From the IMG/VR virus record IMGVR_UViG_3300034417_000033, positions 42,908-106,907 of that record: a DNA stretch of 64,000 nt; one strand, given 5' to 3'. This DNA comes from a virus. The position numbers and the translations under genes were made by a program. The notes under the pieces were generated by a model. It did not search any database. It saw only the letters and a list, made by a program, of their open reading frames with translations, and was not told where the DNA came from. Positions 15,341 to 64,000 of this stretch are shown piece after piece. The first letter of the stretch is position 1. Each line of letters begins with the position of its first letter.

Positions 15341-15369
15341 ATTATAGCAAATTGTTATATAATTGTCAA
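15341..15369 (-). promoter_or_regulatory. sigma70-type promoter (probably leaderless primase transcript)
   Basis: Perfect TTGACA-17-TATAAT; ATG 7 nt below the -10 box. Confidence 0.85.
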
Positions 15370-19404: not shown

Positions 19405-19668
19405 TTATTTTGCAATTTGATTTACCTTTCTATTCTCAAATGGTTGTATAACATCTCTAAATAACTTAATATCTAGTTCACCTGCTAAACAGCCCAATAA
19501 AAAAGTTTCTTTATCCGCACACCTAAACACAACATCGAGAAAATACTTACCTCCGCGCTGCTGTCTAACAAGGTCTGCATACGGAATTCTATTTTTTCTT
19601 AACTGCATTTTTAATGCACTTATTGGAAAATCAAAACTGTATGGAATATTCGTTTCGTGTATATACAT
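19405..19668 (-). CDS. small hypothetical protein
   Basis: ORF; start overlaps a sigma70 -10 box. Confidence 0.5.
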   Translation of the reverse strand: MYIHETNIPYSFDFPISALKMQLRKNRIPYADLVRQQRGGKYFLDVVFRCADKETFLLGCLAGELDIKLFRDVIQPFENRKVNQIAK

Positions 19669-19695
19669 TATAGCAGTTCCTTATAAAGATGTCAA
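19667..19695 (-). promoter_or_regulatory. sigma70-type promoter
   Basis: TTGACA-17-TATAAT. Confidence 0.75.
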
Positions 19696-21149
19696 CGATC
19701 TAGTTTTACCACTTTAAATGGGTACTGCTCTTGTTTATAATATTTCTTACGTTCGGTTAGATGGCGTTTAGAATATTTAGAAGAGGAACACAAATCGTAT
19801 ACGTTTGCAAAGTCTTTATCTTCTGCTTTCCGTATGCTTCTGCCGATTGATTGAATAACTCGAATAAAGCTCTTGCCTGGTTCTAACATGAACAGATTAA
19901 AAATTCTTGGAACGTCAATGCCCACGGCCGCGACACCATAAGTAGCAATGATTGTGTTATTGTCTGAAGTTTGGATCTTTTTATATTCTTCTTTTCTTTC
20001 GTCACTGTCAACTGTCCCGTTAATAAAAACTGAGCCTGGAATAAGCTCTTGTAATATTTTACCTGTCTCAATTCTATCAATTAAGATAAGTGCGTTGCCA
20101 CCGTCTGCATGTGTAGTAATGTAGTTTGCAAGAAACTTTAGTCGATCCTTGTCTGTTACTAGATATTTTAGCTCAGTTGCATAGCTTGCAAACTTATAAT
20201 CATAATCTTGTATCTGTGCGACAGTAATGTGCAAGTTACTTAATATGCCTTTGTCTTGCAATTCTTTTGCAGTAACAGAATTAATAAGAGGGCCAATTGA
20301 ACAAAGCAATGACATCTTGTCATAATCTTCTAAAGGAATAGTGCCAGTCATCCCCCAACGTATTGGCACATTTGCAAAAGTAGATGTCAGATGTTTTCGA
20401 AGTACCTTTGCATCTGCTCCGTGACATTCGTCCACAATAACAGTTGCAATGCCTTCGACAAAATCATCAAGATCCAATTCCAGATCGTATTTTTTGCTTT
20501 TCTTATCTAGAGCTTCAATACTTTGCCATGTACAAATAATATGTTGGTGCCCAGGCTCTTTTCTATCACCAAAGTAAACACCCACATCAAGACCAAGTAA
20601 TTTGAAATCTCGTTCTGTCTGTGTTACCAGATCCTTACTTGGAACGATAGTTATTGTTCTTCCATACTTTTCTGTCTTGTGTGCAAGTATGGCCGTGATT
20701 AAAGTTTTTCCTGCTCCAGTTGATACTTTTTGTATAGACTGAGTATTTGCAAGATATTCGTTAACTACTTCAACTTGGTGCTCTCGAACCATAATTGATT
20801 CGCCTGCTTTTACGTGGCCTTCTGGCCAAACAATATGGGCATACGAATCTTCACTAACTGCATCAAATTCAAAAGTGTTATGTACGCGGGCATCATCAAT
20901 CGAAATTAAATATCCTGCCTCTTGTACAATTGGCAACAGCCTATCTAACAAATTAATATTTGTTCTGCCGCCCACATCACAAAACGCTTCTTTTCCATTC
21001 CAACGGCCTAACTTAAAGGCAGGTGAGAACTTAGCCCAAGGCATGAAGAATTCTGTTGCTTGAACTAATTTTCGTCTTGTGCCGGCATCGAGCCCTTTCA
21101 GTTGACAGTTAACTTCGTCCTGAATATAGATTATACAATCCTGCGACAT
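19692..21149 (-). CDS. uvsW: SF2 DNA helicase (UvsW-like)
   Basis: STGAGKT, DECH, GMTGT, QSIGRSIR. Confidence 0.9.
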   Translation of the reverse strand: MSQDCIIYIQDEVNCQLKGLDAGTRRKLVQATEFFMPWAKFSPAFKLGRWNGKEAFCDVGGRTNINLLDRLLPIVQEAGYLISIDDARVHNTFEFDAVSEDSYAHIVWPEGHVKAGESIMVREHQVEVVNEYLANTQSIQKVSTGAGKTLITAILAHKTEKYGRTITIVPSKDLVTQTERDFKLLGLDVGVYFGDRKEPGHQHIICTWQSIEALDKKSKKYDLELDLDDFVEGIATVIVDECHGADAKVLRKHLTSTFANVPIRWGMTGTIPLEDYDKMSLLCSIGPLINSVTAKELQDKGILSNLHITVAQIQDYDYKFASYATELKYLVTDKDRLKFLANYITTHADGGNALILIDRIETGKILQELIPGSVFINGTVDSDERKEEYKKIQTSDNNTIIATYGVAAVGIDVPRIFNLFMLEPGKSFIRVIQSIGRSIRKAEDKDFANVYDLCSSSKYSKRHLTERKKYYKQEQYPFKVVKLDR

Positions 21150-26008: not shown

Positions 26009-26037
26009 ATTATACGCTATCCTTATTACAATGTCAA
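26009..26037 (-). promoter_or_regulatory. sigma70-type promoter
   Basis: TTGACA-17-TATAAT upstream of SSB. Confidence 0.8.
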
Positions 26038-27752: not shown

Positions 27753-29309
27753 TTAACAGAAAACCAATGGCATCGGTGCATCGTAGTCATCAAAGTCGTC
27801 ACCAATGTTACTGTTTATCTGACTTAACGTCTTATCATCCCACATGCTTATATACTGTGCCATTCTAATAAACAAGATTGTTGACATTACTAAGTCATCT
27901 GTACATCCGCCTTTAGCTTGGAATGTATTCCCGACGCCAATGAATGTTTTTAGTTCGCTAAGCAAATTACCAGAATTGATTTTTAACTTACCTGTCTCGA
28001 CCAACGATTTCATTTTAGAACATGCTTCTAATTTACTTTTGTTTGTAGTAATAAAGCCCATACGTTTTCTGCCAGAAGCATTTGTGTTTCTTACAGGATC
28101 GTGCAACATTGTTCCTGGGAAGTTTTCTTCACCTGTATCTCTCACAACAACAAGTGCAGCTTCGCCCAATGTGTTAGCTTCAATTGACCAATACAACTCT
28201 GGCTTTCCTTTGCTCTCGATATCCTTTAATAGACTCATAAGTATTTTCATCTGCCCTTCAATTGCAGTCTTATTGTGTTGCCACTCTGCAACTTGAATCA
28301 TTGAAGGTAGTTCCCATACTTGTATTGCAGCATTGTCCCCGCCGGTTCCCATACTCGGATCTAAGGCAACAACATATGTCTTAGTAGAGTCAATGTCTTT
28401 ATACCATCGTATTTGAGATTCTTTTCTAATAGGCTGAGACCCTCTCATGCCAGCGAGGATGATTGAATCAATTAGTGTCTCTTCGAAGATAATGAACTTA
28501 CACTCATGTTCCCGCTGGAATCGTTCTTCTCCAATTTTACCACGTTCTTCACTTGCCCATTGTTCACCTCTATCTGGATGTCTTCTCCAGTCTGCGATGT
28601 ATGGCACAAATCCATTAATTCCTGCAGGAGTTTCATTACCATACTCATCAAGACGCATGTTAGCCTTGCGCCAAATATCAGCAAATGTATCTTCGTCAGA
28701 GTTGGGAGTGCTTGTAATAATAGCTTTACCACCAGTTGACAACGTAGGTGACAAAGATGTCCATAGTTCTTTAGCAACACGTTGTTCAACGAACGCAAAC
28801 TCATCCATGTAAACAAGTGTAATAGACATACCACGACCAGTATTTTCTGTAGTTGTTGCAGAAACAATACGTGAGCCGTTATCAAATATAATGGATTGCT
28901 TGTTGTACTCTGCTGCTCCAGCTCTAATATGATCCGGTAATTCCTCATACGCAAATCGTATACGAATCATAATTTCACGGGAGTCGCCACCGGACTTAGA
29001 AGCAACAAGGATAGTAGAATCTCGCACAAACATTGCATACCACAGTAAATATGCAGCAGCTACCGTTGTCTTACCTAACTGACGTCCAGTTAATGCAATT
29101 GCGTACCTGTTATTATGAAATACGTCAATCATCTCTTTTTGGTATTCATACGGCTCAAATTTCATTCGCCCCTTAACAGGATGCTGAACGTAAATAAAGT
29201 TTTCCATGAAGTACAACGGCGATTCCATGCACTTCTGTAGTTCTTCAGCTTTCTGCTTGGTATAATTTACCTTAGATCGTGCTTTTTTAATTAAATCTGT
29301 GTTGGCCAT
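27753..29309 (-). CDS. terL: terminase large subunit (gp17-like)
   Basis: YEYQ, GRQLGKTT, YMDEFAF, TSTPN, ALDPSMG, DDLVMS. Confidence 0.95.
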   Translation of the reverse strand: MANTDLIKKARSKVNYTKQKAEELQKCMESPLYFMENFIYVQHPVKGRMKFEPYEYQKEMIDVFHNNRYAIALTGRQLGKTTVAAAYLLWYAMFVRDSTILVASKSGGDSREIMIRIRFAYEELPDHIRAGAAEYNKQSIIFDNGSRIVSATTTENTGRGMSITLVYMDEFAFVEQRVAKELWTSLSPTLSTGGKAIITSTPNSDEDTFADIWRKANMRLDEYGNETPAGINGFVPYIADWRRHPDRGEQWASEERGKIGEERFQREHECKFIIFEETLIDSIILAGMRGSQPIRKESQIRWYKDIDSTKTYVVALDPSMGTGGDNAAIQVWELPSMIQVAEWQHNKTAIEGQMKILMSLLKDIESKGKPELYWSIEANTLGEAALVVVRDTGEENFPGTMLHDPVRNTNASGRKRMGFITTNKSKLEACSKMKSLVETGKLKINSGNLLSELKTFIGVGNTFQAKGGCTDDLVMSTILFIRMAQYISMWDDKTLSQINSNIGDDFDDYDAPMPLVFC

Positions 29310-49690: not shown

Positions 49691-51955
49691 TTAGTTTGAA
49701 TGTACAATCAGGTTAGAATCAACCGCGTTAATGTATTCTGCTGCAACCGTCATATCCTCGCGCAAATCATTGTCGGACCAATAGTTTCTGTCGGACATTA
49801 ACTTAATCATCGGATACTGCTTGTAGAACTCTGTTACAGAATTATACGCTTCATGCTCGTACTTGTCAATAGTTAATTTAGCGGAAAATGCTGCAATTGA
49901 CTTGAGCATCGACGTTTGTGTTTTCAGTTTTTCAATATCCGAATCCTGACCAAGTTTTACATCGCCGAGATGCTCAATTAGTGCGCCAGCTGCCGAGTTG
50001 TTTGAAAAAGTAATCCCTAATTTCCGGACGCCCAACACAAACGATTTGATTTGTCGTTCAGCTAGTACAGCAGATGCTAACAGTGTCTGACGAGCATGTG
50101 CTTCAGTAGTTTGGTCTGCTTTTTCAGCAATTGCATCAAAAATGTTTTTCCAGTTCTTAGCAGACTTGACTCCTTCGAGGCCTGCTTTACGAACGCCGTA
50201 AATACGTGAAGCAATTCCGGACGACGAAACAAAGTCCATTACCTTTTCAAAATTCCGGAATGCTGCCATTGCATGTTCAGCCACTGAACCTTCTGGTGTT
50301 TTGACCTCATAGCCGGATACTTCTACATAATAATATATAGTAGTGTCATCAAATTGGTAGTTTCCAGACCGATCGGAATCCCACAACCAACGTTTGCCTG
50401 AGCCGCGGTAGTCGCTGTAGTTTGGGTTTCTGGAATAAGCAACAGTATGGTTGCTTTCCACTTTTTCCTTTTTCGGTGCCTCTGGCATGTCGCTAACTTT
50501 TATGAATGTCGGATTGCCGAATTCCTTAGCAATTAACGCAACATACTTGTCTAGGCTTGCAGAAAAGTCAATTTTAGCCTTTTTGTTGTGCTCGAAGCCG
50601 ACCACAACGATATCTTTAGGCTTGCCTGCAAAATACAACCGCATTCTCTGCAAATACGAGCGAGCATCATCACAAATAACAAACACTGTGCTTTCTGAAA
50701 AACCAATATTGTGATAGAACCGGTCAGGCAACCCTTTTGTTTGACGGGAATGATCGTAATCTCGCTGCGGTGATTCACGGCGAAGACCTTTATATCCGGA
50801 AGCATACTCTGCAAACGTCATTCCTTTCGGAAACGAATCCAAATACACAGGACGACTCGAAGTATGAGAATAGCAACCTGAGGTACCGTTTCGATCATAA
50901 GTAAAGTACGAATCAAGTCCAGCGGCTACCCATGCAACTTTAACTGCTGCACCTAAGTAGTTGTCGTTCATGTACTTCTTCAAATACAGAATCTTTTCCC
51001 AATCAGTAGTCAGTTCCTTCATTTTCCCAGCAATGTATACAGACACATCTGCAATAATTGCTTGGGCTCGAACAGTAATGTTTGCCAACGTTTTCTTATC
51101 ATACGACAGTTCTTCACGTGACGCTGCAACATCAAGTTCGCCCATTGCGAACTCAATCACCAGCGGGTTGTATGCAAGGAATCGATACAAGTCAGCATCA
51201 ATACCTGCTGGATCGAGAGGATACTCTACGCCGCCTTGGATAGCAACAGATCCGCCTTGCCCTTTTCGGAAACGGACGCCTGGGGAAACAGCAGAACGCT
51301 CTGCTTCATAAACAGAACGGATGTGAACTTCTTTTAGGTCGGCGCCAGTAAAATTCGGCAGCACCTTAAAGTGGCGCAGTGCATGGCAAGTCTCATCACG
51401 AATTTGACGAATGTCATTATCGTTTGTGAGTGGGAATTTTACTTCAATCCCAGGAGCGTCGTCACTGTCAGCTTCAGTCATCAACAAAATGGATGGGACG
51501 CCTTGTTCGTTAATGAATGCACTGTAATTGCGCACTTTTCCGTCCATGTACGCTGCAACAGTAAAGTTGTCAGTGTAGCTGAATGGGGATTTAGAGCCTA
51601 AACCAAAAGCGCCAATCTGGTCGTTCGACTGTGTTTTGCTCGAGGAAAAGTAAGTTGAATACAGGGACAAAATACCTGCGTGATCTAGGCTAGTGCCATA
51701 GTCACGAATGGAAAACCACGGTTCCAAAGTAGTTGGCAAGTGCAAGTCAAACGGAACGTCTGCTTTCTTAGCCATAACATGGCTGTCCAATGCGTTACAG
51801 GAAAGTTCACGCACAATTGCCCGCAGCTTGTTTTTGTACAGCCCGGACGACAGAATCTTGAATGCTTTAGCAGAGTTCTTAATCTGGAATTCATTAGAAG
51901 CATTCTCTACGTTTCCAATAATAACTACTTCTGCTTGGTCGCCTGTTAAAATCAC
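49691..51955 (-). CDS. rIIA: rIIA-like protein
   Basis: KAF.ILSSGLY.NK..AIVREL.CNA.DSH, IRDYG, GAFGLGSKSPFSYTD, SREELSY. Confidence 0.92.
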   Translation of the reverse strand: MILTGDQAEVVIIGNVENASNEFQIKNSAKAFKILSSGLYKNKLRAIVRELSCNALDSHVMAKKADVPFDLHLPTTLEPWFSIRDYGTSLDHAGILSLYSTYFSSSKTQSNDQIGAFGLGSKSPFSYTDNFTVAAYMDGKVRNYSAFINEQGVPSILLMTEADSDDAPGIEVKFPLTNDNDIRQIRDETCHALRHFKVLPNFTGADLKEVHIRSVYEAERSAVSPGVRFRKGQGGSVAIQGGVEYPLDPAGIDADLYRFLAYNPLVIEFAMGELDVAASREELSYDKKTLANITVRAQAIIADVSVYIAGKMKELTTDWEKILYLKKYMNDNYLGAAVKVAWVAAGLDSYFTYDRNGTSGCYSHTSSRPVYLDSFPKGMTFAEYASGYKGLRRESPQRDYDHSRQTKGLPDRFYHNIGFSESTVFVICDDARSYLQRMRLYFAGKPKDIVVVGFEHNKKAKIDFSASLDKYVALIAKEFGNPTFIKVSDMPEAPKKEKVESNHTVAYSRNPNYSDYRGSGKRWLWDSDRSGNYQFDDTTIYYYVEVSGYEVKTPEGSVAEHAMAAFRNFEKVMDFVSSSGIASRIYGVRKAGLEGVKSAKNWKNIFDAIAEKADQTTEAHARQTLLASAVLAERQIKSFVLGVRKLGITFSNNSAAGALIEHLGDVKLGQDSDIEKLKTQTSMLKSIAAFSAKLTIDKYEHEAYNSVTEFYKQYPMIKLMSDRNYWSDNDLREDMTVAAEYINAVDSNLIVHSN

Positions 51956-51987: not shown

Positions 51988-52016
51988 ATTATAGTGACAT
52001 GTGGAACTGATGTCAA
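51988..52016 (-). promoter_or_regulatory. sigma70-type promoter for the rII operon
   Basis: TTGACA-17-TATAAT. Confidence 0.8.
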
Positions 52017-55826: not shown

Positions 55827-55889
55827 AGTTAGTCTCCTTGCATATATTATAACAATATTAATGCAGTGTGTCAAGAAACTAAATAAAAA

Positions 55890-56158: not shown

Positions 56159-57118
56159 TCAATCGGCTCGGGTTGGACTTTGTTTTAAAATATCGCATAA
56201 CTCATCTAAAGATTGTTGACAATCAACAATTAATTTAGTCGCTTGTTTCTTAAGTTTGCTTATATTATCATCAGATACATCGTCCATAGAATCAGACGCA
56301 ATATTCAATCTCGTTTGGAATCTAAACATCTTAACATTTGGAACTTGACTAAGTTGATAATCAGTAACTGCACTTTGGCCGTCAAACATAATATCAAGCA
56401 AAGGAACTACCCACTGTGCATCTCCCCAATCTTTTGCAGATTCATATGGTATGGATCTAGTGTTCTGTCCAGTTCCGATAGAAACAACTAACAGATCATC
56501 ATCGGGGAATAATTTTTTTGCTTCTATACTAGCAGACAAAGATGGATTGTTAACGTATACTCCGCCATCAATCAAAATACGATCTAACCCATTAACTTTT
56601 ACTTTTGCGGGTTCGAAGTATGTTGGTGCTGCTGACGTACCTCTTGCTGCTTGCCATAACAAAGTATTTTTAGTGTCAGCTTTCCAGCTTTTTAGAAAAA
56701 GAGGCGTTCTGTTTTCTATGTCATAGGTAGTAACGAAAGTTTTAGTATGGCATGTATTAAGTGTTGCCGACTCTGTGAAGAAACGTTTTAATACTTTTAC
56801 AATACCTTCGTCTGAATATTTTTCAGACACGATGCCGCCGATGGAAAAAATGCTTCGCAATGCGCTTCTGGAAAAGATGTCTTTTCCATGATCTTTATAC
56901 ATATCAAACACATCATCAGCAGTATATTTCAATACGCCTTTTGAATCAGTAGCAGTCAATGCTAAAGACAGTATGCCGCCTGTTGACGTTCCTGCTATCA
57001 AGTCAAAACAATCAGCAATTCTTTTGCCTGTTTGTTTTTCAATATATGCCAACACTAATGCAGGCAGGGCACCTTTTATGCCTCCACCGTCAATAGAAAG
57101 TATTGTACGCAATGCCAT
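56159..57118 (-). CDS. patatin-like phospholipase
   Basis: LSIDGGGIKG, GTSTG nucleophile, SAAPTYF, DGG, SIGTG; late promoter at 57141-57148. Confidence 0.93.
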   Translation of the reverse strand: MALRTILSIDGGGIKGALPALVLAYIEKQTGKRIADCFDLIAGTSTGGILSLALTATDSKGVLKYTADDVFDMYKDHGKDIFSRSALRSIFSIGGIVSEKYSDEGIVKVLKRFFTESATLNTCHTKTFVTTYDIENRTPLFLKSWKADTKNTLLWQAARGTSAAPTYFEPAKVKVNGLDRILIDGGVYVNNPSLSASIEAKKLFPDDDLLVVSIGTGQNTRSIPYESAKDWGDAQWVVPLLDIMFDGQSAVTDYQLSQVPNVKMFRFQTRLNIASDSMDDVSDDNISKLKKQATKLIVDCQQSLDELCDILKQSPTRAD

Positions 57119-57170
57119 TTTAATCTCCAATTCTTAAACATATTTATCAAGAAACTGGAAATCATTTACG

Positions 57171-57581
57171 TTAGGGCATAGGTACGATAGCTTTTTTTGT
57201 AGACTGTAACTTATAGATTATTTTCTGTTGCTGTTGAAAATCAAATTCTTTCTTACATAACACTTTTGCATGTTGAAAGAATCGATTGTTTTCAACTAGC
57301 GGCGCGTATTTCTGTTCTTTAGATTTCGAATAATTTGCGTACAGCTCACGATCACCATACTTAGAAAAACGCAAGGTGAAAGCTAATTCACCATGAATAT
57401 AAAAGGCACAATCATGAGACACAGACAAATTATGTATGACATCTTCTATCATGTATTCTGGCCAACGGCCAAAGTCTTCGGCGCCGTCAAACAAAAATTC
57501 TCCGGCGGTATTTACCCTAACTCGCATTAAATCGCCAATTAGATTATGGTAACATTGTGATATCTGTTTATCAAAGTTCAT
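57171..57581 (-). CDS. hypothetical protein
   Basis: Coupled ORF. Confidence 0.55.
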   Translation of the reverse strand: MNFDKQISQCYHNLIGDLMRVRVNTAGEFLFDGAEDFGRWPEYMIEDVIHNLSVSHDCAFYIHGELAFTLRFSKYGDRELYANYSKSKEQKYAPLVENNRFFQHAKVLCKKEFDFQQQQKIIYKLQSTKKAIVPMP

Positions 57582-57904
57582 TCATATTTCCATTGATATG
57601 GTCGTGTGGAGTTTTTCTTCCAGGAGCGTTTTAGATTCCATGACGTTGTTACTAGGTCATCCCACATTGTGGGCAACATACTAGCAGATCGTCTGCCTCT
57701 TATTTTTACACCTACAGAAACCTCGTCTTCTGTTAGGAATGAATTCCTACATTCTTGCGAGGTCGCTGGATTTCTGTGATATCGATATCTAGAATCAAGA
57801 TCATAATACTTGTATCTCGACCATGACTCTGCAGAATAATATTCGAAATATAAGTCTTTAACCTTGTTCTTCCGTTTCTTCTGGTTCGACTTGATTCGTT
57901 TCAT
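57578..57904 (-). CDS. small basic hypothetical protein
   Basis: R.P.T.QE.R...RGRR...LPT.WDD...RSWK...QWK. Confidence 0.65.
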   Translation of the reverse strand: MKRIKSNQKKRKNKVKDLYFEYYSAESWSRYKYYDLDSRYRYHRNPATSQECRNSFLTEDEVSVGVKIRGRRSASMLPTMWDDLVTTSWNLKRSWKKNSTRPYQWKYE

Positions 57905-58130
57905 TGTCTGCTCTCTTAATAACGAAATTGCCCTCGATATTCGTTTTGAAGAAATTTCCTTTGGACGGCGCTGCTAACCACTTGTCAAACAACTCTTGTG
58001 GAATGTTGTTAATGTTGTATGCAAGGCCGTTGCTCAAGGACATCCGAACTTCGCTTGTCTCAGCGTTGTAAGAAATGTCTGAAAGCCACGACGACTGGAC
58101 TGCGTCTTCAAATATTTCAGATGCCTTCAT
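57858..58130 (-). CDS. KTSC domain protein
   Basis: SSWLSDISY...G..Y...IP...F...AAPSKG.FF..NI. Confidence 0.85.
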   Translation of the reverse strand: MKASEIFEDAVQSSWLSDISYNAETSEVRMSLSNGLAYNINNIPQELFDKWLAAPSKGNFFKTNIEGNFVIKRADNETNQVEPEETEEQG

Positions 58131-58534
58131 AAAAGCCTCAAATTGCCAGTTACTGAGTCAATATCGTCTGCCAAGGCAGGACCAATTGCAACAGTGGTGT
58201 AAGTTGGGACGCCATTAAAAACAGTATGGCCAGCGTCCTGAATTATCGAACACAGCAATCCTTTTGCTTTAGCTTGATTGTATAACTGCAAAAGTTCCTT
58301 TTCGGATCCTACGCCCAATACAACTTTAGTAAATCTTTCTTTGTACCAAACAGAATCCACTGGAGTCAACTGCAAATGAATCATCTCAGGTGTATTAGTT
58401 TCGGGGACTGCATCAGTATGGGTTGATCTTGACAGAATCGCTGCTAACGATGCATGTGCTACTTGAGATGCAATCTTGCCGGTTGGCATAGATAAATCTC
58501 GTCTAACTAAAATTACCTGTTTAACATCTGACAT
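58127..58534 (-). CDS. pth2: peptidyl-tRNA hydrolase, Pth2 family
   Basis: KQVILVRRDL.M..GKIASQVAHAS, KVVL, IQDAGHT, T.VAIGP, ID.VTG.L.LL. Confidence 0.92.
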   Translation of the reverse strand: MSDVKQVILVRRDLSMPTGKIASQVAHASLAAILSRSTHTDAVPETNTPEMIHLQLTPVDSVWYKERFTKVVLGVGSEKELLQLYNQAKAKGLLCSIIQDAGHTVFNGVPTYTTVAIGPALADDIDSVTGNLRLL

Positions 58535-58554
58535 TTCGTTCTCCAAAAATTAGG

Positions 58555-58696
58555 CAGTCTTTATCGCTAGGGAAAGTTTGTACTTCGTATATAGCAAAGT
58601 GCATTGCAAACGCATTGCCTGTGCATGTCAGCGGGTACAAAACCGGATATGCTAACTAGGCTTGCCGAAGCAATCATAACGCCCTGCAATTGACTG
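58555..58696 (-). ncRNA. candidate structured ncRNA C
   Basis: Closing CAGTC/GACTG plus AGGG/CCCT, TTGC-TTCG-GCAA tetraloop hairpin, TTTGTAC/GTACAAA. Confidence 0.55.
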
Positions 58697-58708
58697 TGTG
58701 CGTTGTAT

Positions 58709-59020
58709 TTATGCGACCTTAACACCTTTTTGCATTATCAGGGTCATCGTTGTCTGCTTATTGTCCTGTAATGCTGCATCAATAACTTCTTCAGTAATCG
58801 AAGAATCTAACTTGATCGCCCAGGCTTGTAAATTTCTTTGCGAGTTCATCCGGCATCGCATTTCTAATGCCTTAAAATTAACGGGAAATTTGTAATCTGT
58901 TTTTCCTGTTGCTAACTTATCAACTAGGCTTTGCTGCATCTTTTCTTCTTCAGCGGTAATGTCAATGTAGCCTTCTAATCCATAATCAGAGACTATTAAA
59001 ATACAAGCCTTAGTTGTCAT
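58709..59020 (-). CDS. hypothetical protein
   Basis: Coupled ORF. Confidence 0.6.
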   Translation of the reverse strand: MTTKACILIVSDYGLEGYIDITAEEEKMQQSLVDKLATGKTDYKFPVNFKALEMRCRMNSQRNLQAWAIKLDSSITEEVIDAALQDNKQTTMTLIMQKGVKVA

Positions 59021-59376
59021 TCATTTAACTTCTGTACAAAATATGACTGGCGCGCTGTTTCAATGCCTTGCCAAAAGTCAATTTCGTCTGGAGTAGCAGG
59101 ACGAATTACTTTAAAACTTTGGTCATGACGGCGATATTCATCTAAGTCAATCCAGTTCCCAGTTTCTAATTGAAGATGTATTCTAGAATTATTAAAAATA
59201 CGTCTAGAATAAGCAGACTGCAATGCTGTAATTAATGTAATAATTCCAAATTGACCATCGTCAATCAATTTCTCAATTTCTCGGCGTGGGACAATAACTG
59301 GAATCTTTTCTACGATAGTTCGTTCTCCCGTAAGGGTAAACTCACTTTTTAAATTCGCATATTTTCCATACATCAC
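59017..59376 (-). CDS. hypothetical protein
   Basis: Coupled ORF. Confidence 0.55.
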   Translation of the reverse strand: MMYGKYANLKSEFTLTGERTIVEKIPVIVPRREIEKLIDDGQFGIITLITALQSAYSRRIFNNSRIHLQLETGNWIDLDEYRRHDQSFKVIRPATPDEIDFWQGIETARQSYFVQKLNE

Positions 59377-59732
59377 TCTTCATCCTCGTCATCTTCACTA
59401 TCGCCAGTAAGTTTTAATTGTAACAAACTATGCTGCACTGCGTCAATGTCCGCCATTAATTTTCTTTCAACTTTCTTAGCCTTTCTAATTTCTTCAGTAG
59501 AATACCAACTGTGACTTCCATGATGCTCAACGTCTTCTACCCACTGCCCATCTTTAATTTCTGCATCTGGACTTTTGGTTAAAGATTTTGCAACACTCTT
59601 TCGAAGTAAGTCTACTAACTGGGCTGGAGAAAGTTCCACTTCATTTAAAAGCCCCAACAAATCGTGTTCTGAAATCTGCACGTTTTCATACTTCGACACT
59701 GTCGCCCGAACTGTGTAATGTTGTTTTGCCAT
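59373..59732 (-). CDS. hypothetical protein
   Basis: Coupled ORF. Confidence 0.6.
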   Translation of the reverse strand: MAKQHYTVRATVSKYENVQISEHDLLGLLNEVELSPAQLVDLLRKSVAKSLTKSPDAEIKDGQWVEDVEHHGSHSWYSTEEIRKAKKVERKLMADIDAVQHSLLQLKLTGDSEDDEDEE

Positions 59733-60147
59733 CTTTTAATTTCCTAATATATGTTTTTAAATCTTTCACATCTTCAGTAGTATATGCAATCACATCAGCG
59801 TGTTTAATTGTAAATACTAGTGCATCATTCCTATCTGGGAATCGGTATACTGAAATATAGGGAGACGAATTTCCTAGCACACACTGGCTGTATTGTATAG
59901 AAAACCAGCCGTTATGCGACTGGGTGTCTAATATTGCAATTTTTGCTTTCCGATAATATTCAATTTGGTCTTCAATAATTCCCATATTAAATATTTCTCT
60001 TACACCAATATGGCTATTAACGTCATGAAGAACAACATATGCTGGAATACTATTGCGAAACAGCTCCTGCGATTTAACAGCAACCTGTTCTATAGCAACT
60101 ATAGATTTTCTTCCAAACCATGATAGAAATTTTCGAAATGAAATCAT
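59686..60147 (-). CDS. hypothetical protein (FxxxxDALxF family)
   Basis: YRFPDRNDALVFTIKH. Confidence 0.55.
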   Translation of the reverse strand: MISFRKFLSWFGRKSIVAIEQVAVKSQELFRNSIPAYVVLHDVNSHIGVREIFNMGIIEDQIEYYRKAKIAILDTQSHNGWFSIQYSQCVLGNSSPYISVYRFPDRNDALVFTIKHADVIAYTTEDVKDLKTYIRKLKDGKTTLHSSGDSVEV

Positions 60148-60410
60148 TTAGTTTTTCCAGTCAACACAATTGCAAACATTTCCTGTGGATCCAATTTTGT
60201 AACAACTGGGATACACAAAATATTTTCAATAGGGATCTTATACACTTTTGACAATCTAGCTATCATGCTACTAGCATGGTGTGTATAAGTAAACGGCCTT
60301 GCTTTAGTCCAATCGGAAACAAATCTAGCAGATGATGATGTTGCGCCTGTTCCGAAGCCGTGCCCTTGTGCATACACAATGTATGTGGTTTTTTCTTTTT
60401 CGAGATTCAC
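60144..60410 (-). CDS. hypothetical protein
   Basis: ORF with RBS. Confidence 0.55.
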   Translation of the reverse strand: MNLEKEKTTYIVYAQGHGFGTGATSSSARFVSDWTKARPFTYTHHASSMIARLSKVYKIPIENILCIPVVTKLDPQEMFAIVLTGKTK

Positions 60411-60428
60411 AGTAGCCCCTTAAATAAA

Positions 60429-60608
60429 TTAGAATATCAGTCGGCACACACAGGGTACTTCCAAAATAATTTTGGGCTGTGTGCGGCTAACTCTACTAGG
60501 AGGTTAACTTCCCATTAGACCGGTAGTGCATCCCTATCAGTCTTCTCGTAACAGCATTATCAATCAAGTGGCCGATGCACAGCATTGATATGTAGACTGA
60601 TATTCTAA
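60429..60608 (-). ncRNA. candidate structured ncRNA D (14-bp closing stem)
   Basis: TTAGAATATCAGTC/GACTGATATTCTAA termini; internal GCACACAG/CTGTGTGT, CCAAAAT/ATTTTGG, possible pseudoknot. Confidence 0.6.
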
Positions 60609-60632
60609 AACTGGTAAAATTAATATTGTGTC

Positions 60633-61052
60633 TTATTGAAACAGTCGTTTTGCAACTTTCGATGCTAACGCGCCATCATATTGACCAGCAAACGATTTCT
60701 TAAGGAAGCCCATTGCCTCACCTAAGCTCTTTACATCAGCCATAGTGATTGCAGATTCAATCTGTGATTCTGTTAATTGATCTGGCAAAAAGTGTTTCAA
60801 AATATCAAGCTCTTGCTTGCACTGTTCTTCGGATTCAGCATTCACACCTGCAACATGCTTTAGTGTATCTGTTGCAGAATCCATAAATTTTTTCACTGTA
60901 GAAATAACCAACGTGTCAGTCACTTCTTCTCCGCCGCGCTTCGCTTTAGTTTCCAATTCGCCGAGCAACGTGATCAAGAGATTCTTTGCAACTGTATCTT
61001 TTGCTTTACGTGCTGCGAGTGCTTTCGATTCAATTTGTTGTAAAATTGTCAT
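60633..61052 (-). CDS. GatB/YqeY domain protein
   Basis: A.KAKD......L...L.......E...L..FLP.QL.E......MG.LK....G..DG. Confidence 0.85.
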   Translation of the reverse strand: MTILQQIESKALAARKAKDTVAKNLLITLLGELETKAKRGGEEVTDTLVISTVKKFMDSATDTLKHVAGVNAESEEQCKQELDILKHFLPDQLTESQIESAITMADVKSLGEAMGFLKKSFAGQYDGALASKVAKRLFQ

Positions 61053-61389
61053 ATTCCCTACCTTCTTGTTGTAAGTGTTCTGTAATATTTTCTAATATAG
61101 TTTCGTGCATAGTTACTGCATTATCCCAAGTATCACACCTGTCCATAATGCCGTCAAAGCCTCCACCAAACACCATTGTTTCAAATAAATGTACGTCCGT
61201 GCTAGTAAATGAGTGATCTAACCCTAAAAACACTGTACTAATTGTCACATGGGAGATTGGCAAGCCCATATGTTTTACTTCTAATGTCGTGACTACAACC
61301 TTTGTATTTGCGTGTTCAAGCCATGCTGCCCATTTCAATACATCGGGCTCATGAACTGCTACTCTTCCCTGCAATATATATTTTTTCAT
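61030..61389 (-). CDS. conserved phage hypothetical protein
   Basis: ISTVFLGLDHSF....LFETMVFGG; start moved to lie below the tRNA. Confidence 0.7.
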   Translation of the reverse strand: MKKYILQGRVAVHEPDVLKWAAWLEHANTKVVVTTLEVKHMGLPISHVTISTVFLGLDHSFTSTDVHLFETMVFGGGFDGIMDRCDTWDNAVTMHETILENITEHLQQEGREYDNFTTN

Positions 61390-61402
61390 TTCTTTCCTAA
61401 TT

Positions 61403-61489
61403 TGGCGGAGAGCAGTGGTCTCGATCCACATACCTTTCGAGTACGAACTGTTTTCGAGGCAGTCTCAGTCCCTGACTGATTTACTCTCC
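61403..61489 (-). tRNA. tRNA-Ser(CGA)
   Basis: GGAGAGT/GCTCTCC acceptor, G discriminator plus CCA, CTCGAAA anticodon loop, long variable arm, GATCGAGAC T-loop variant. Confidence 0.8.
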
Positions 61490-61684
61490 TGTATTATTTT
61501 CCCAGCTACGGTTACACCAAAATCTTGTGCCGGAATCTCTTACAACAGCCACTTGTAAAATGCTTGCTGTTTCTAACCATCGTGTTTCCGTTCCTATTTT
61601 TGTAGGAAACCACAAAAACTTTTTAATTACTCTGCCAGTCCCTGCCCTGGGCAAATGTGGCTTTTTCTTTTCGTAAAATCTCAC
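61481..61684 (-). CDS. small hypothetical protein
   Basis: GTG start with GGAG RBS; KKFLWFP..I..ETRWLE; stop codon lies in the 5' end of tRNA-Ser. Confidence 0.5.
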   Translation of the reverse strand: MRFYEKKKPHLPRAGTGRVIKKFLWFPTKIGTETRWLETASILQVAVVRDSGTRFWCNRSWENNTGE

Positions 61685-61686
61685 AG

Positions 61687-62034
61687 TTACTCTCCGTACA
61701 TTTTGCCGTTTGTGAACCACACTGTGTCTACAAACTGAACTGGGGCATTCGTGTCTTCCCAAACAAATGCACTAGACTTAAAGGGATTATATGAAATCCT
61801 TCTTGCTGTTTCTGGCTTTTGCTGGGCGTTAATGTTATAGGCATTTGTAACTACAAACGCATGTACATTCCTAACTTTAGTGAGTTTTGCTCTTTTATTA
61901 CCTGCTGCACTAACTCTCAGTTCCACGTTTCTGGCGCTGAAGTTGGATTGCCTGTCTATAACTTTTCCCCTCAACTTTATTGAGAAGTCTGTTCCAGAAT
62001 TTAAGTTCCTATAAATATACATTTTTGCAAACAT
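61687..62034 (-). CDS. conserved phage hypothetical protein
   Basis: YRNLN...FSIK..GKVI...RNVHAFV...YNPFK. Confidence 0.7.
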   Translation of the reverse strand: MFAKMYIYRNLNSGTDFSIKLRGKVIDRQSNFSARNVELRVSAAGNKRAKLTKVRNVHAFVVTNAYNINAQQKPETARRISYNPFKSSAFVWEDTNAPVQFVDTVWFTNGKMYGE

Positions 62035-62049
62035 ACAATTCCCATAATT

Positions 62050-62160
62050 TGGTGCCGGTGACGGGACTCGAACCCACAACATGTACTTGGCATAACACAG
62101 GCGCATTAACTAGTTCCGGACTTCGCAAATGACTTTAATAACCTATTGTGCTAGAGGCGT
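62050..62160 (-). pseudogene. degenerate tRNA-Gly(GCC)-like element
   Basis: Intact 3' half (TGCCAA, GTGGGTTCGAGTCCCGT, CACCGGC-A-CCA) but no matching 5' acceptor strand. Confidence 0.55.
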
Positions 62161-62162
62161 TT

Positions 62163-62477
62163 CTATTCTTCCCCTTCTGGGGACGGCTTTGCCAATTTGC
62201 CTACACCGTGCAATATTTCTTTCAAAACCTGTTTCGTTGTATCTCTTGCTAAACTTGAAGCTGATGCTCTTGCATAACCCTGAACAGAATATGCAATTTC
62301 TTTTGGGTCACCTAGTGTTGCAGTGTGACCACCATACATTCGATCAGTAACAATGTTGCCAACTGATCCGGGAATGCTGTCTGCATAATCACCCGTATTG
62401 CGGATAGCTTTATCAGGAATGCTTTCTGCATTCGCGACATTTGCAATCAGTAACATCAGGATTATGTGTTTCATCAA
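62163..62477 (-). CDS. exported hypothetical protein
   Basis: N-terminal signal-like MKHIILMLLIANVANA. Confidence 0.55.
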   Translation of the reverse strand: MMKHIILMLLIANVANAESIPDKAIRNTGDYADSIPGSVGNIVTDRMYGGHTATLGDPKEIAYSVQGYARASASSLARDTTKQVLKEILHGVGKLAKPSPEGEE

Positions 62478-62664
62478 TAACCTCTTGTCTAGCGTACCAT
62501 TTCAAAACAAGTGCAACAAATGTGTTGCAGCACTTTTTTACCCACGAATTGTACACTGCATTGAATGCGTGGAAATCTCTTATCCAAAACCAGCACATTA
62601 CAAAAATTGCAAGCAGGCCAGTTCCAATAAAAAATGCTAACATAGCTAATAGAATATCTGACAT
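62413..62664 (-). CDS. small membrane protein
   Basis: N-terminal TM, C-terminal CKCREC. Confidence 0.5.
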   Translation of the reverse strand: MSDILLAMLAFFIGTGLLAIFVMCWFWIRDFHAFNAVYNSWVKKCCNTFVALVLKWYARQEVIDETHNPDVTDCKCRECRKHS

Positions 62665-62665
62665 G

Positions 62666-63619
62666 TTAGCTTACCGAAGCAATGATGCGTGGGGCGTGTA
62701 CTTTAGGCATACTTGCACCAACTGACAGTTTTACGTGCTCTGGGTGTTCTGCCATCCAATCCTGGACGTACCAAAGCTGGCCACAGCCGCCTCCAATCGT
62801 ATCCTGTCCTGCAGGATCAAACACACGCACATTGTAACCGTTCTCAACAAGTTTGGAACCAAAATCTACTGCAAGATTACGCTGTGTTTCGTTTGTTGCT
62901 GCACAGTGACTGTCGCGTTCGCAAATTACAGAAACGGTTGCTTCCCAAATTTTCGGGTCAAACAATGCTTGTAAACGTGCGACATCAGCATCAGCATCGT
63001 TACCAGCGTGAGCACAATAGTTGAAGTAAGGACGACGACCTGTTGCTTCGTGCCATTTCACACCTTCAACTGCGATTTGTTCCAAGTTTAGTTTCTTTTC
63101 AAACGGAACTAGTTTGTTTCGTGCCTCGTCAGTGCTTTCATGTACAGAGAATTGCAAACCTACAGTTGGAATTTCAACGCTCATTTCGCGGATCCAACCA
63201 TAATCAACTGCGGGCGCAGATGTACTAATTAGCAACGATGCGTTTGGGTACTTCGCATGTAACATGCGGAATGCTTCCCAAAGTGCTTTAACCATTGCTG
63301 GCTCGCCCATGCTCATAACCATGATCTGCAATTTCTTGATTGCAGTTGGGTCGATACCAATTTGTGATTGCAAGCAATAGTCTGCTTGACCGAAAATTTC
63401 TTCTGCTGTCAGTGAGCGAACAAAGTAATCGCCAGTTCCACAGAATCGACAACCAATTGGACATCCGCACATTGTGGAGATACAAAGAACAGTGCGTTCT
63501 TCATATGTGGGATAACGATAAAGCACAGCTTCTACAGCAATGTCTTCTTTTTCAAAGACATACTTTTTAACGTGCTCTTTATCATCTTCAAATACTTTTA
63601 CGTTAGTCCACATAATCAT
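62666..63619 (-). CDS. RlmN/Cfr-family radical SAM protein
   Basis: CISTMCGCPIGCRFC, MSMGEP, SVH, IGGGCGQL (both RlmN-type catalytic Cys positions present). Confidence 0.85.
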   Translation of the reverse strand: MIMWTNVKVFEDDKEHVKKYVFEKEDIAVEAVLYRYPTYEERTVLCISTMCGCPIGCRFCGTGDYFVRSLTAEEIFGQADYCLQSQIGIDPTAIKKLQIMVMSMGEPAMVKALWEAFRMLHAKYPNASLLISTSAPAVDYGWIREMSVEIPTVGLQFSVHESTDEARNKLVPFEKKLNLEQIAVEGVKWHEATGRRPYFNYCAHAGNDADADVARLQALFDPKIWEATVSVICERDSHCAATNETQRNLAVDFGSKLVENGYNVRVFDPAGQDTIGGGCGQLWYVQDWMAEHPEHVKLSVGASMPKVHAPRIIASVS

Positions 63620-64000
63620 TCAGCTCCAAGTGTTGTGGGTTGAGTAGCTTTCTTTTTCAGTGTTAGCAGAACAAACTTTGCTTCTTCAATTGCAAGTTGC
63701 ATTTCTTTCATGTCATCAAAAGTCAACGTGATTCCACCGTTAGCAGACATCTTTACGTTGACACTTTTTGTACGGTCTACAGTTTCTCTATGGTCGTGAT
63801 GATACCCGTCAATTGCAACATAAACTAAAATATTTGCCATGGAATGCAGCTGACTATTAGTTGTAGTCTTTCGAAGAACTACGAAAGTCACGTCATCTTT
63901 AGTCTTAACTTGGCCATGCCAAGGACTAGCCGATTTACCAGTGCGTAACATGTGCGCTAAAGATGCGAGCGCATGTTCATCATCCGCTTCAATAGTAACT
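63616..64000 (-). CDS. hypothetical protein, partial (frame open to window end)
   Basis: Frame continues upstream of the track start (VTIEADDEHALASLAHMLR...). Confidence 0.6.
   Translation of the reverse strand, partial: VTIEADDEHALASLAHMLRTGKSASPWHGQVKTKDDVTFVVLRKTTTNSQLHSMANILVYVAIDGYHHDHRETVDRTKSVNVKMSANGGITLTFDDMKEMQLAIEEAKFVLLTLKKKATQPTTLGAE

Follow-up and report, generated by a model that had tools for sequence, protein, structure and literature searches.

The question raised by this locus was whether a non-coding gap of 222 nt, lying among tightly packed phage genes and bracketed by a perfect inverted repeat, holds a structured RNA, and what such an RNA might do. The window, meaning the whole 64,000-nt stretch that was analysed, comprises bases 42908-106907 of a 106,907-base IMG/VR virus contig. 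CheckV completeness of this contig was 29%, and the contig was therefore regarded as a jumbo-phage fragment. The large terminase (27753-29309, minus strand) showed 64% identity to TerL of Pseudomonas phage PA5oct and its relatives, and its top relatives in IMG/VR were 60-64% identical; the source is an uncultured jumbo phage distantly related to PA5oct. The ORF lists placed nearly all genes on the minus strand, overlapping or abutting one another around the gap, which agrees with the gene-dense surroundings described in the original prediction. The gap, its two neighbours and the arms of the repeat are as follows.

60411-60632, minus strand: non-coding gap of 222 nt, between the stop codon of the YqeY-like gene (60633-60635) and the GTG with which the 88-aa ORF begins (60410), as given by the ORF lists.
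60633-61052, minus strand: YqeY-like gene (PF09424, phrog_1460), upstream of the gap in the sense of transcription.
60144-60410, minus strand: 88-aa ORF downstream of the gap, starting at GTG and served by the ribosome-binding site AAGGGG.
60595-60608, minus strand: arm of the repeat that is 5' in the minus-strand RNA, UUAGAAUAUCAGUC, starting 24 nt past the YqeY stop codon.
60429-60442, minus strand: arm of the repeat that is 3' in the minus-strand RNA, GACUGAUAUUCUAA; next comes UUUAUUUAAGGGG, in which the downstream ORF has its ribosome-binding site.

The gap was screened for coding potential. No ORF longer than 29 aa was found on the gene strand with the standard code; when TGA was read as tryptophan or TAG as glutamine, every ORF of the gap ran into the neighbouring genes and none was credible, so that the predicted absence of an ORF stands. 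The setting is one of translation-related genes, namely YqeY, a Pth2-like gene, a radical SAM gene, a tRNA-Arg and a tRNA-Ser-like gene, with the nearest tRNA-like gene some 800 nt from the element.

Several features of this neighbourhood were recorded in their own right. A tRNA-Ser(CGA)-like gene of type II, in which the CCA is encoded (61403-61489, minus strand), overlaps the 5' end of ORF 61030-61431; it was called by ARAGORN at a relaxed threshold only, was missed by default ARAGORN and by the Rfam tRNA model at E<=1, and is perhaps a phage tRNA that is degenerate or unusual. A gap of about 117 nt holds an orphan tRNA 3' half (62050-62080, minus strand), made up of a T-arm (GGGUUCGAGUCCC), the 3' strand of the acceptor stem and CCA; no matching 5' acceptor strand was found nearby. 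ORF 61687-62106 spans this half, and since its Pfam match begins only at residue 28 its true start is probably downstream. The radical SAM gene (62666-63619, minus strand) had counterparts of 74-77% identity in ten contigs of IMG/VR, some of them complete genomes of 205-235 kb. The 13 contigs carrying it at 60-77% identity had in common with this phage none of the 16 other genes tested (56159-63951), and it looks like a conserved gene moving among otherwise different jumbo phages.

The terminal inverted repeat was found as predicted: TTAGAATATCAGTC (60429-60442) and GACTGATATTCTAA (60595-60608) form a perfect 14-bp repeat, 100% complementary, with 152 nt between the arms. It is the sole perfect inverted repeat of at least 13 bp, at a spacing of 3-400 nt, in the 107-kb contig. 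The helix is flanked by mismatches at both ends and contains only four G-C pairs, and its pairing probability was 0.95-0.99 with 0, 100 or 300 nt of flanking sequence. The end of the 3' arm lies 8 nt from the downstream ribosome-binding site.

The helices predicted within the repeat were the following.

60444-60485, minus strand: compound hairpin, in which an asymmetric internal loop separates an outer helix of CA/UG repeats (about 9 bp) from an inner 6-bp helix CCAAAA/UUUUGG with a 3-nt loop.
60558-60590, minus strand: hairpin UAUCAAU/AUUGAUA (arms 60558-60564 and 60584-60590), with a 19-nt loop that contains GUGCAUC.
60517-60543, minus strand: hairpin B (6 + 3 bp), with a 7-nt loop, GGAUGCA, and a probability of 0.96 on the minus strand.
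60535-60543, minus strand: internal AGACUGAUA, for which 9-bp pairing with 60594-60602 is possible, in competition with the closing helix for its arm.
60499-60512, plus strand: hairpin GGAGG-UUAA-CUUCC, with a probability of 0.92 on the plus strand against 0.18 on the minus strand.

Minimum free energy, centroid and MEA folds were multi-branch junctions on both strands. The compound hairpin of the original prediction was recovered, with CACACAG/CTGTGTG (60447-60453 and 60477-60483) as the outer and CCAAAA/TTTTGG (60461-60466 and 60470-60475) as the inner arms, and with minus-strand pairing probabilities of 0.91 and 0.89. The TATCAAT/ATTGATA hairpin was likewise recovered, at 0.82 on the minus strand against 0.03 on the plus strand; the three local hairpins of the minus strand together had pairing probabilities of 0.8-0.96. 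The loop of hairpin B is complementary to that of the 60558-60590 hairpin, through GTGCATC/GATGCAC (60526-60532 and 60574-60580), and this pairing crosses the TATCAAT/ATTGATA helix as predicted. It is a candidate kissing or pseudoknot contact of 6-7 bp that was read from the sequence, nested-fold tools being unable to score such pairing. The loops, also as read, are without the usual stabilising tetraloops. The GGAGG-UUAA-CUUCC hairpin needs a G-U pair and is therefore stable on the plus strand only; the plus-strand reading of the element also includes AGGAGGU.

Transcription signals were then surveyed in and beside the gap. On the minus strand neither a promoter-like site scoring at least 10 of 12 nor a terminator-like site was found there. 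UUUAUUU follows the closing helix, but this helix encloses 152 nt and has only four G-C pairs, whereas an intrinsic terminator is a compact, GC-rich hairpin with a U run immediately after it. The phage late motif GATAAATA is present elsewhere and is absent in or next to the gap. Six sigma-70 promoters matching the consensus at 12 of 12 positions lie on the minus strand of the window.

15341-15369, 19667-19695, 26009-26037, 49841-49869, 51988-52016 and 55846-55874, minus strand: sigma-70 promoters TTGACA-17-TATAAT, 12/12.

These perfect promoters suit a phage that depends on RNA polymerase of the host, as PA5oct is reported to do. Because none of these signals was found in or beside the gap, it is most likely read through from upstream, and most likely lies within a transcript that starts beyond the end of the contig and runs to about 55,900 or further. 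We infer that the gap is transcribed on the minus strand. On the plus strand there was only a promoter-like site scoring 10 of 12, the -10 hexamer of which lies inside an arm of the repeat, so that an RNA started from it would be without the closing helix. As the gap would lie inside a long transcript, any role at the RNA level would most simply be exerted in cis in that message.

The reading that is put forward, tentatively, as the best available is that the element is a cis-acting, stem-closed intercistronic RNA loop in a polycistronic message, which insulates folding and may set boundaries of processing or decay. The orphan spacer would sit inside a long minus-strand operon and, if it acts at all, would most likely do so in cis within the polycistronic RNA. 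By pairing, the arms of the 14-bp repeat would turn the 152-nt spacer into a loop of several hairpins, closed by a stem and placed between the YqeY-like cistron and the one that follows; the closing helix would insulate the folding of the spacer from the flanking coding RNA, and could serve as a site of processing or as a barrier to decay, so influencing the ends and half-lives of both cistrons. The starting points of this proposal were observed directly: the repeat, its place at both edges of the gap, the robustness of its folding, and the absence of a promoter or terminator belonging to the gap. Any processing or stabilising role we infer. Counted in favour of the stem-closed loop were the presence of such a gap amid packed genes, the uniqueness of the repeat, the robust closing helix, the defined hairpins, the likely read-through, the precedent of PA5oct and the self-complementarity of the element. 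Counted against it were the ordinary fold of the interior, the rates at which such a repeat and such a duplex arise in shuffled sequence and in random windows, coding windows of equal stability, the lack of a homologue, paralogue or Rfam family, the fact that gaps of this phage are in general not stem-closed, and the slightly better folding of the plus strand.

Most of these objections belong to the explanation that survived best beside it, namely chance: the gap would be a functionless or decaying spacer, for example the remnant of a lost gene or of cassettes shuffled within an accessory region, and the repeat and stems would be coincidental. This is nearly as likely as the cis-loop reading. 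The expectation that the element would fold better than shuffled controls held for the element as a whole (z -3.24 on the minus and -4.30 on the plus strand), in a window that had been cut at the inverted repeat. It failed for the 152-nt interior alone (z -0.61 and -0.83), for which 49 of 200 and 43 of 200 shuffles folded at least equally well; the strong score of the whole derives entirely from the closing repeat. Of dinucleotide shuffles of the 107-kb contig, 27% contained a perfect 14-bp inverted repeat with a spacing of 3-400 nt (mean 0.40). In 4% of random windows of equal length the two ends formed a duplex at least as stable as the observed one (-19.9 kcal/mol), a level to be read against the roughly 30 gaps of the phage that were open to inspection. 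Only 2 of 30 gaps reached the 5% level for such a duplex, and a stem-closed architecture common to all gaps of this phage was rejected on that count. When ranked by GC-adjusted minimum free energy against the 188-nt windows of its own contig, the element stood fourth of 2271 on the plus strand and 21st of 2271 on the minus strand, the plus strand thus folding slightly better; several coding windows ranked alongside it. The gaps of three other RNA candidates in the window had unremarkable folds (z -0.4 to -2.4). Poor conservation of the whole neighbourhood was likewise counted in favour of chance: the 88-aa ORF is without a relative, the nearest relative of the YqeY protein is at 42%, and the phages with the radical SAM gene have none of the other genes tested.

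Against chance stand the placement and number of the stems. Arms at both edges of one and the same gap would be, by our estimate, a coincidence of about 1 in 50 to 1 in 100, to be added to the rate seen in shuffles. Six perfect stems of at least 7 bp occur in the element, against a background mean of 1.0, and six were reached by only 3 of 1779 windows; one of the six is a register duplicate of the CA repeat, and two share an arm. In self-complementarity the element falls in the top 0.2% of windows of the contig. The loops of two adjacent hairpins are complementary over 6-7 nt, and in tightly packed phage genomes 222 nt of useless DNA is seldom retained. One other 180-nt stretch, at about 19741-19920 of the contig (some 23 kb before the window starts), has seven perfect stems of at least 7 bp and was the only 180-nt window to exceed the stem count of the element. 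Overall the excess over chance is borderline. Because of where it sits, the inverted repeat, which is real, is probably not accidental; there is little to argue for an elaborate fold shaped by selection, and an elaborate tertiary fold kept by selection is not supported.

Much less probable is that the element gives rise to a phage small RNA that is stable and acts in trans. A species of about 180 nt would be cut out of the operon transcript by cleavage at the base of the closing helix, much as with the stable RNAs from the tRNA region of phage T4. Such an RNA would be new and lineage-restricted, a stem-closed five-way junction in which two adjacent loops may kiss through 6-7 bp, and after release from the operon it could target, for example, the machinery of translation or RNA repair. 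The joining of the 5' and 3' ends by the closing helix, the well-defined hairpins of the minus strand, the candidate loop-loop contact and the translation-related gene setting are consistent with it, as are the abundant orphan ncRNAs expressed by PA5oct (PMC7318152). The lack of an own promoter or terminator, of any tRNA-like motif or Rfam match and of the common stabilising tetraloops, together with the ordinary stability of the interior, speaks against it.

More doubtful still is a switch or coupling device, in which either the alternative 9-bp helix (60535-60543 with 60594-60602) would compete with the closing helix during transcription, or the closing helix would loop out the spacer, so that the downstream ribosome-binding site would come within reach of ribosomes ending on YqeY, the path along the helix base being about 32 nt. 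The two helices are mutually exclusive and use one common arm, and the stop codon lies 24 nt before the closing helix with the ribosome-binding site beginning 8 nt after it. At equilibrium, however, the probability of the alternative helix was 0.00, and it could therefore matter only during transcription; a repeat of 8-9 nt within 180 nt is not rare (about 0.3 expected, by our own estimate), the ribosome-binding site is unsequestered in both conformations, and no ligand-binding family of Rfam was matched.

Copies and relatives were sought at several levels. Searches with the Rfam 15 covariance models gave no match at the gathering score or at E<=10, only sub-threshold snoRNA noise (18-19 bits, where the gathering scores are 45-60), in keeping with the earlier statement that no known family could be recognised. 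A self-cleaving ribozyme, a riboswitch and a Y RNA were each rejected for want of an Rfam signal. A tRNA or tRNA-like RNA was rejected as well: ARAGORN, run for tRNA, tmRNA and intron-containing tRNA, returned junk models only, even under very relaxed settings, no Rfam tRNA or Y-RNA model matched, and the element contains no cloverleaf and no T-arm/T-loop module. No reverse transcriptase domain was found in eight neighbouring ORFs (Pfam, PHROGs), which tells against a retron msr-msd despite the repeats.

A covariance model was built from the minus-strand fold of the element. No other copy was found in the 107-kb contig by DNA search, by this model or by short-word BLAST, covering all gaps and the whole contig. 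The model matched none of the 61 related phage records that were searched, which included PA5oct and four terminase-related records, 42 further terminase-related records, and 13 records carrying the nearby radical SAM gene at 60-77% identity; with filters off it returned short hairpins only. Scans for the arm pattern, using two 11-nt arms, found no other copy in IMG/VR, one arm match in 185,579 species genomes, inside a GC-rich ORF, and five in JGI metagenomes, on GC-rich contigs; all of these had unrelated interiors and no match to the model. The metagenome matches are elements of about 160-180 bp from GC-rich, soil-type contigs, with terminal inverted repeats of 18-24 bp and a chance 11-nt core, GAATATCAGTC (L104:3485-3652, L105:2024-2191, L107:1029-1196, L106:2360-2520 and L108:2806-2983). 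Those on L104, L105 and L107 are one identical 168-bp element found in both orientations, and the set may represent host repeats of a MITE- or REP-like kind.

These searches bear most on the least probable of the explanations, a DNA-level element such as a MITE-like insertion, as originally suggested, or a site of recombination or replication: its terminal inverted repeats of 11-14 bp and size of about 180 bp would suit, and TA adjoins the 11-bp core of the repeat on both sides (TA being its own complement, a target-site duplication is indistinguishable here from an extension of the repeat), but the element is single-copy in the contig and without another copy in IMG/VR, the matches in species genomes and metagenomes are to the searched arms only, with unrelated GC-rich interiors, and no transposase was found nearby (Pfam, PHROGs; neighbouring ORFs).

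The flanking genes had no close relatives in IMG/VR or in a set of 5.8 billion proteins, in which the nearest relative of YqeY was 42% identical and the 88-aa ORF had no relative at all. In PA5oct, in a complete 235-kb IMG/VR phage and in BcepSaruman the next gene follows the YqeY homologue directly, and in Milchi the gap is only 88 nt. Ralstonia phage RSP15 has an unannotated gap of 645 nt (L086:2921-3565) directly after its YqeY-like gene and near four tRNA genes; it gave no match to the model or to Rfam. An element matching the gap was thus absent from the other phages with a YqeY gene that were examined.

The spacer is real, bracketed by an inverted repeat, and an orphan. It is possibly a small cis-acting RNA structure, as the stem-closed loop would have it, and its standing as a new structured RNA is unproven. 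If real, it would be one more orphan structured RNA of a jumbo phage, among translation-related accessory genes, and PA5oct shows that orphan phage RNAs can be abundant. The chief value of the case at present is as a caution, in that an impressive fold score came from a window cut at an inverted repeat; nothing comparable was found elsewhere, the stability of the interior is not unusual, and on present sequence evidence it should not be listed as a new class of RNA.

The element may finally be set beside the known systems that it resembles. Like MITEs and ERIC-like intergenic palindromic units, it measures about 180 bp, ends in inverted repeats and lies between genes of an operon; those units are multi-copy families by definition, whereas the element is single-copy everywhere searched. 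With 6S RNA (RF00013) it shares a length of about 180 nt and paired 5' and 3' ends. 6S RNA, however, is a rod whose large central bubble imitates an open promoter, whereas the element folds as a multi-branch junction and had no match to the 6S model at E<=10, so the idea of a 6S-sized decoy was not borne out. In the long-range stems processed by RNase III, such as those of rRNA operons and the intercistronic R sites of phage T7, a helix formed by flanking or intercistronic sequences likewise defines a processing unit. RNase III substrates typically have about two helical turns, or some 20 bp or more of helix, and the closing helix with its 14 bp falls short of that length. The stable RNAs C and D of phage T4 (species 1 and 2) are small structured RNAs of unknown function in the tRNA gene region and, like the element, lie among tRNA or translation-related genes. 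They stand within a true tRNA cluster and are cut from a longer transcript by the tRNA maturation machinery, whereas the element lies about 800 nt from a tRNA-like gene and has no tRNA-like feature. The closest comparison is with PA5oct, although no sequence or model similarity was found, the covariance model being without a match across the whole PA5oct record. Its YqeY gene, unlike the one described here, is followed by no gap, and its ncRNA001, unlike the element, is without a long perfect closing helix. The orphan ncRNAs of PA5oct, ncRNA001-004, include two that are highly transcribed (Lood et al. 2020, PMC7318152), and its ORF-free orphan regions are expressed at 2-5% of phage reads (PMC7318152). 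Like these ncRNAs, the element belongs to a common broad phage lineage (TerL 64%), is free of ORFs, is a few hundred nucleotides long and resembles nothing else.
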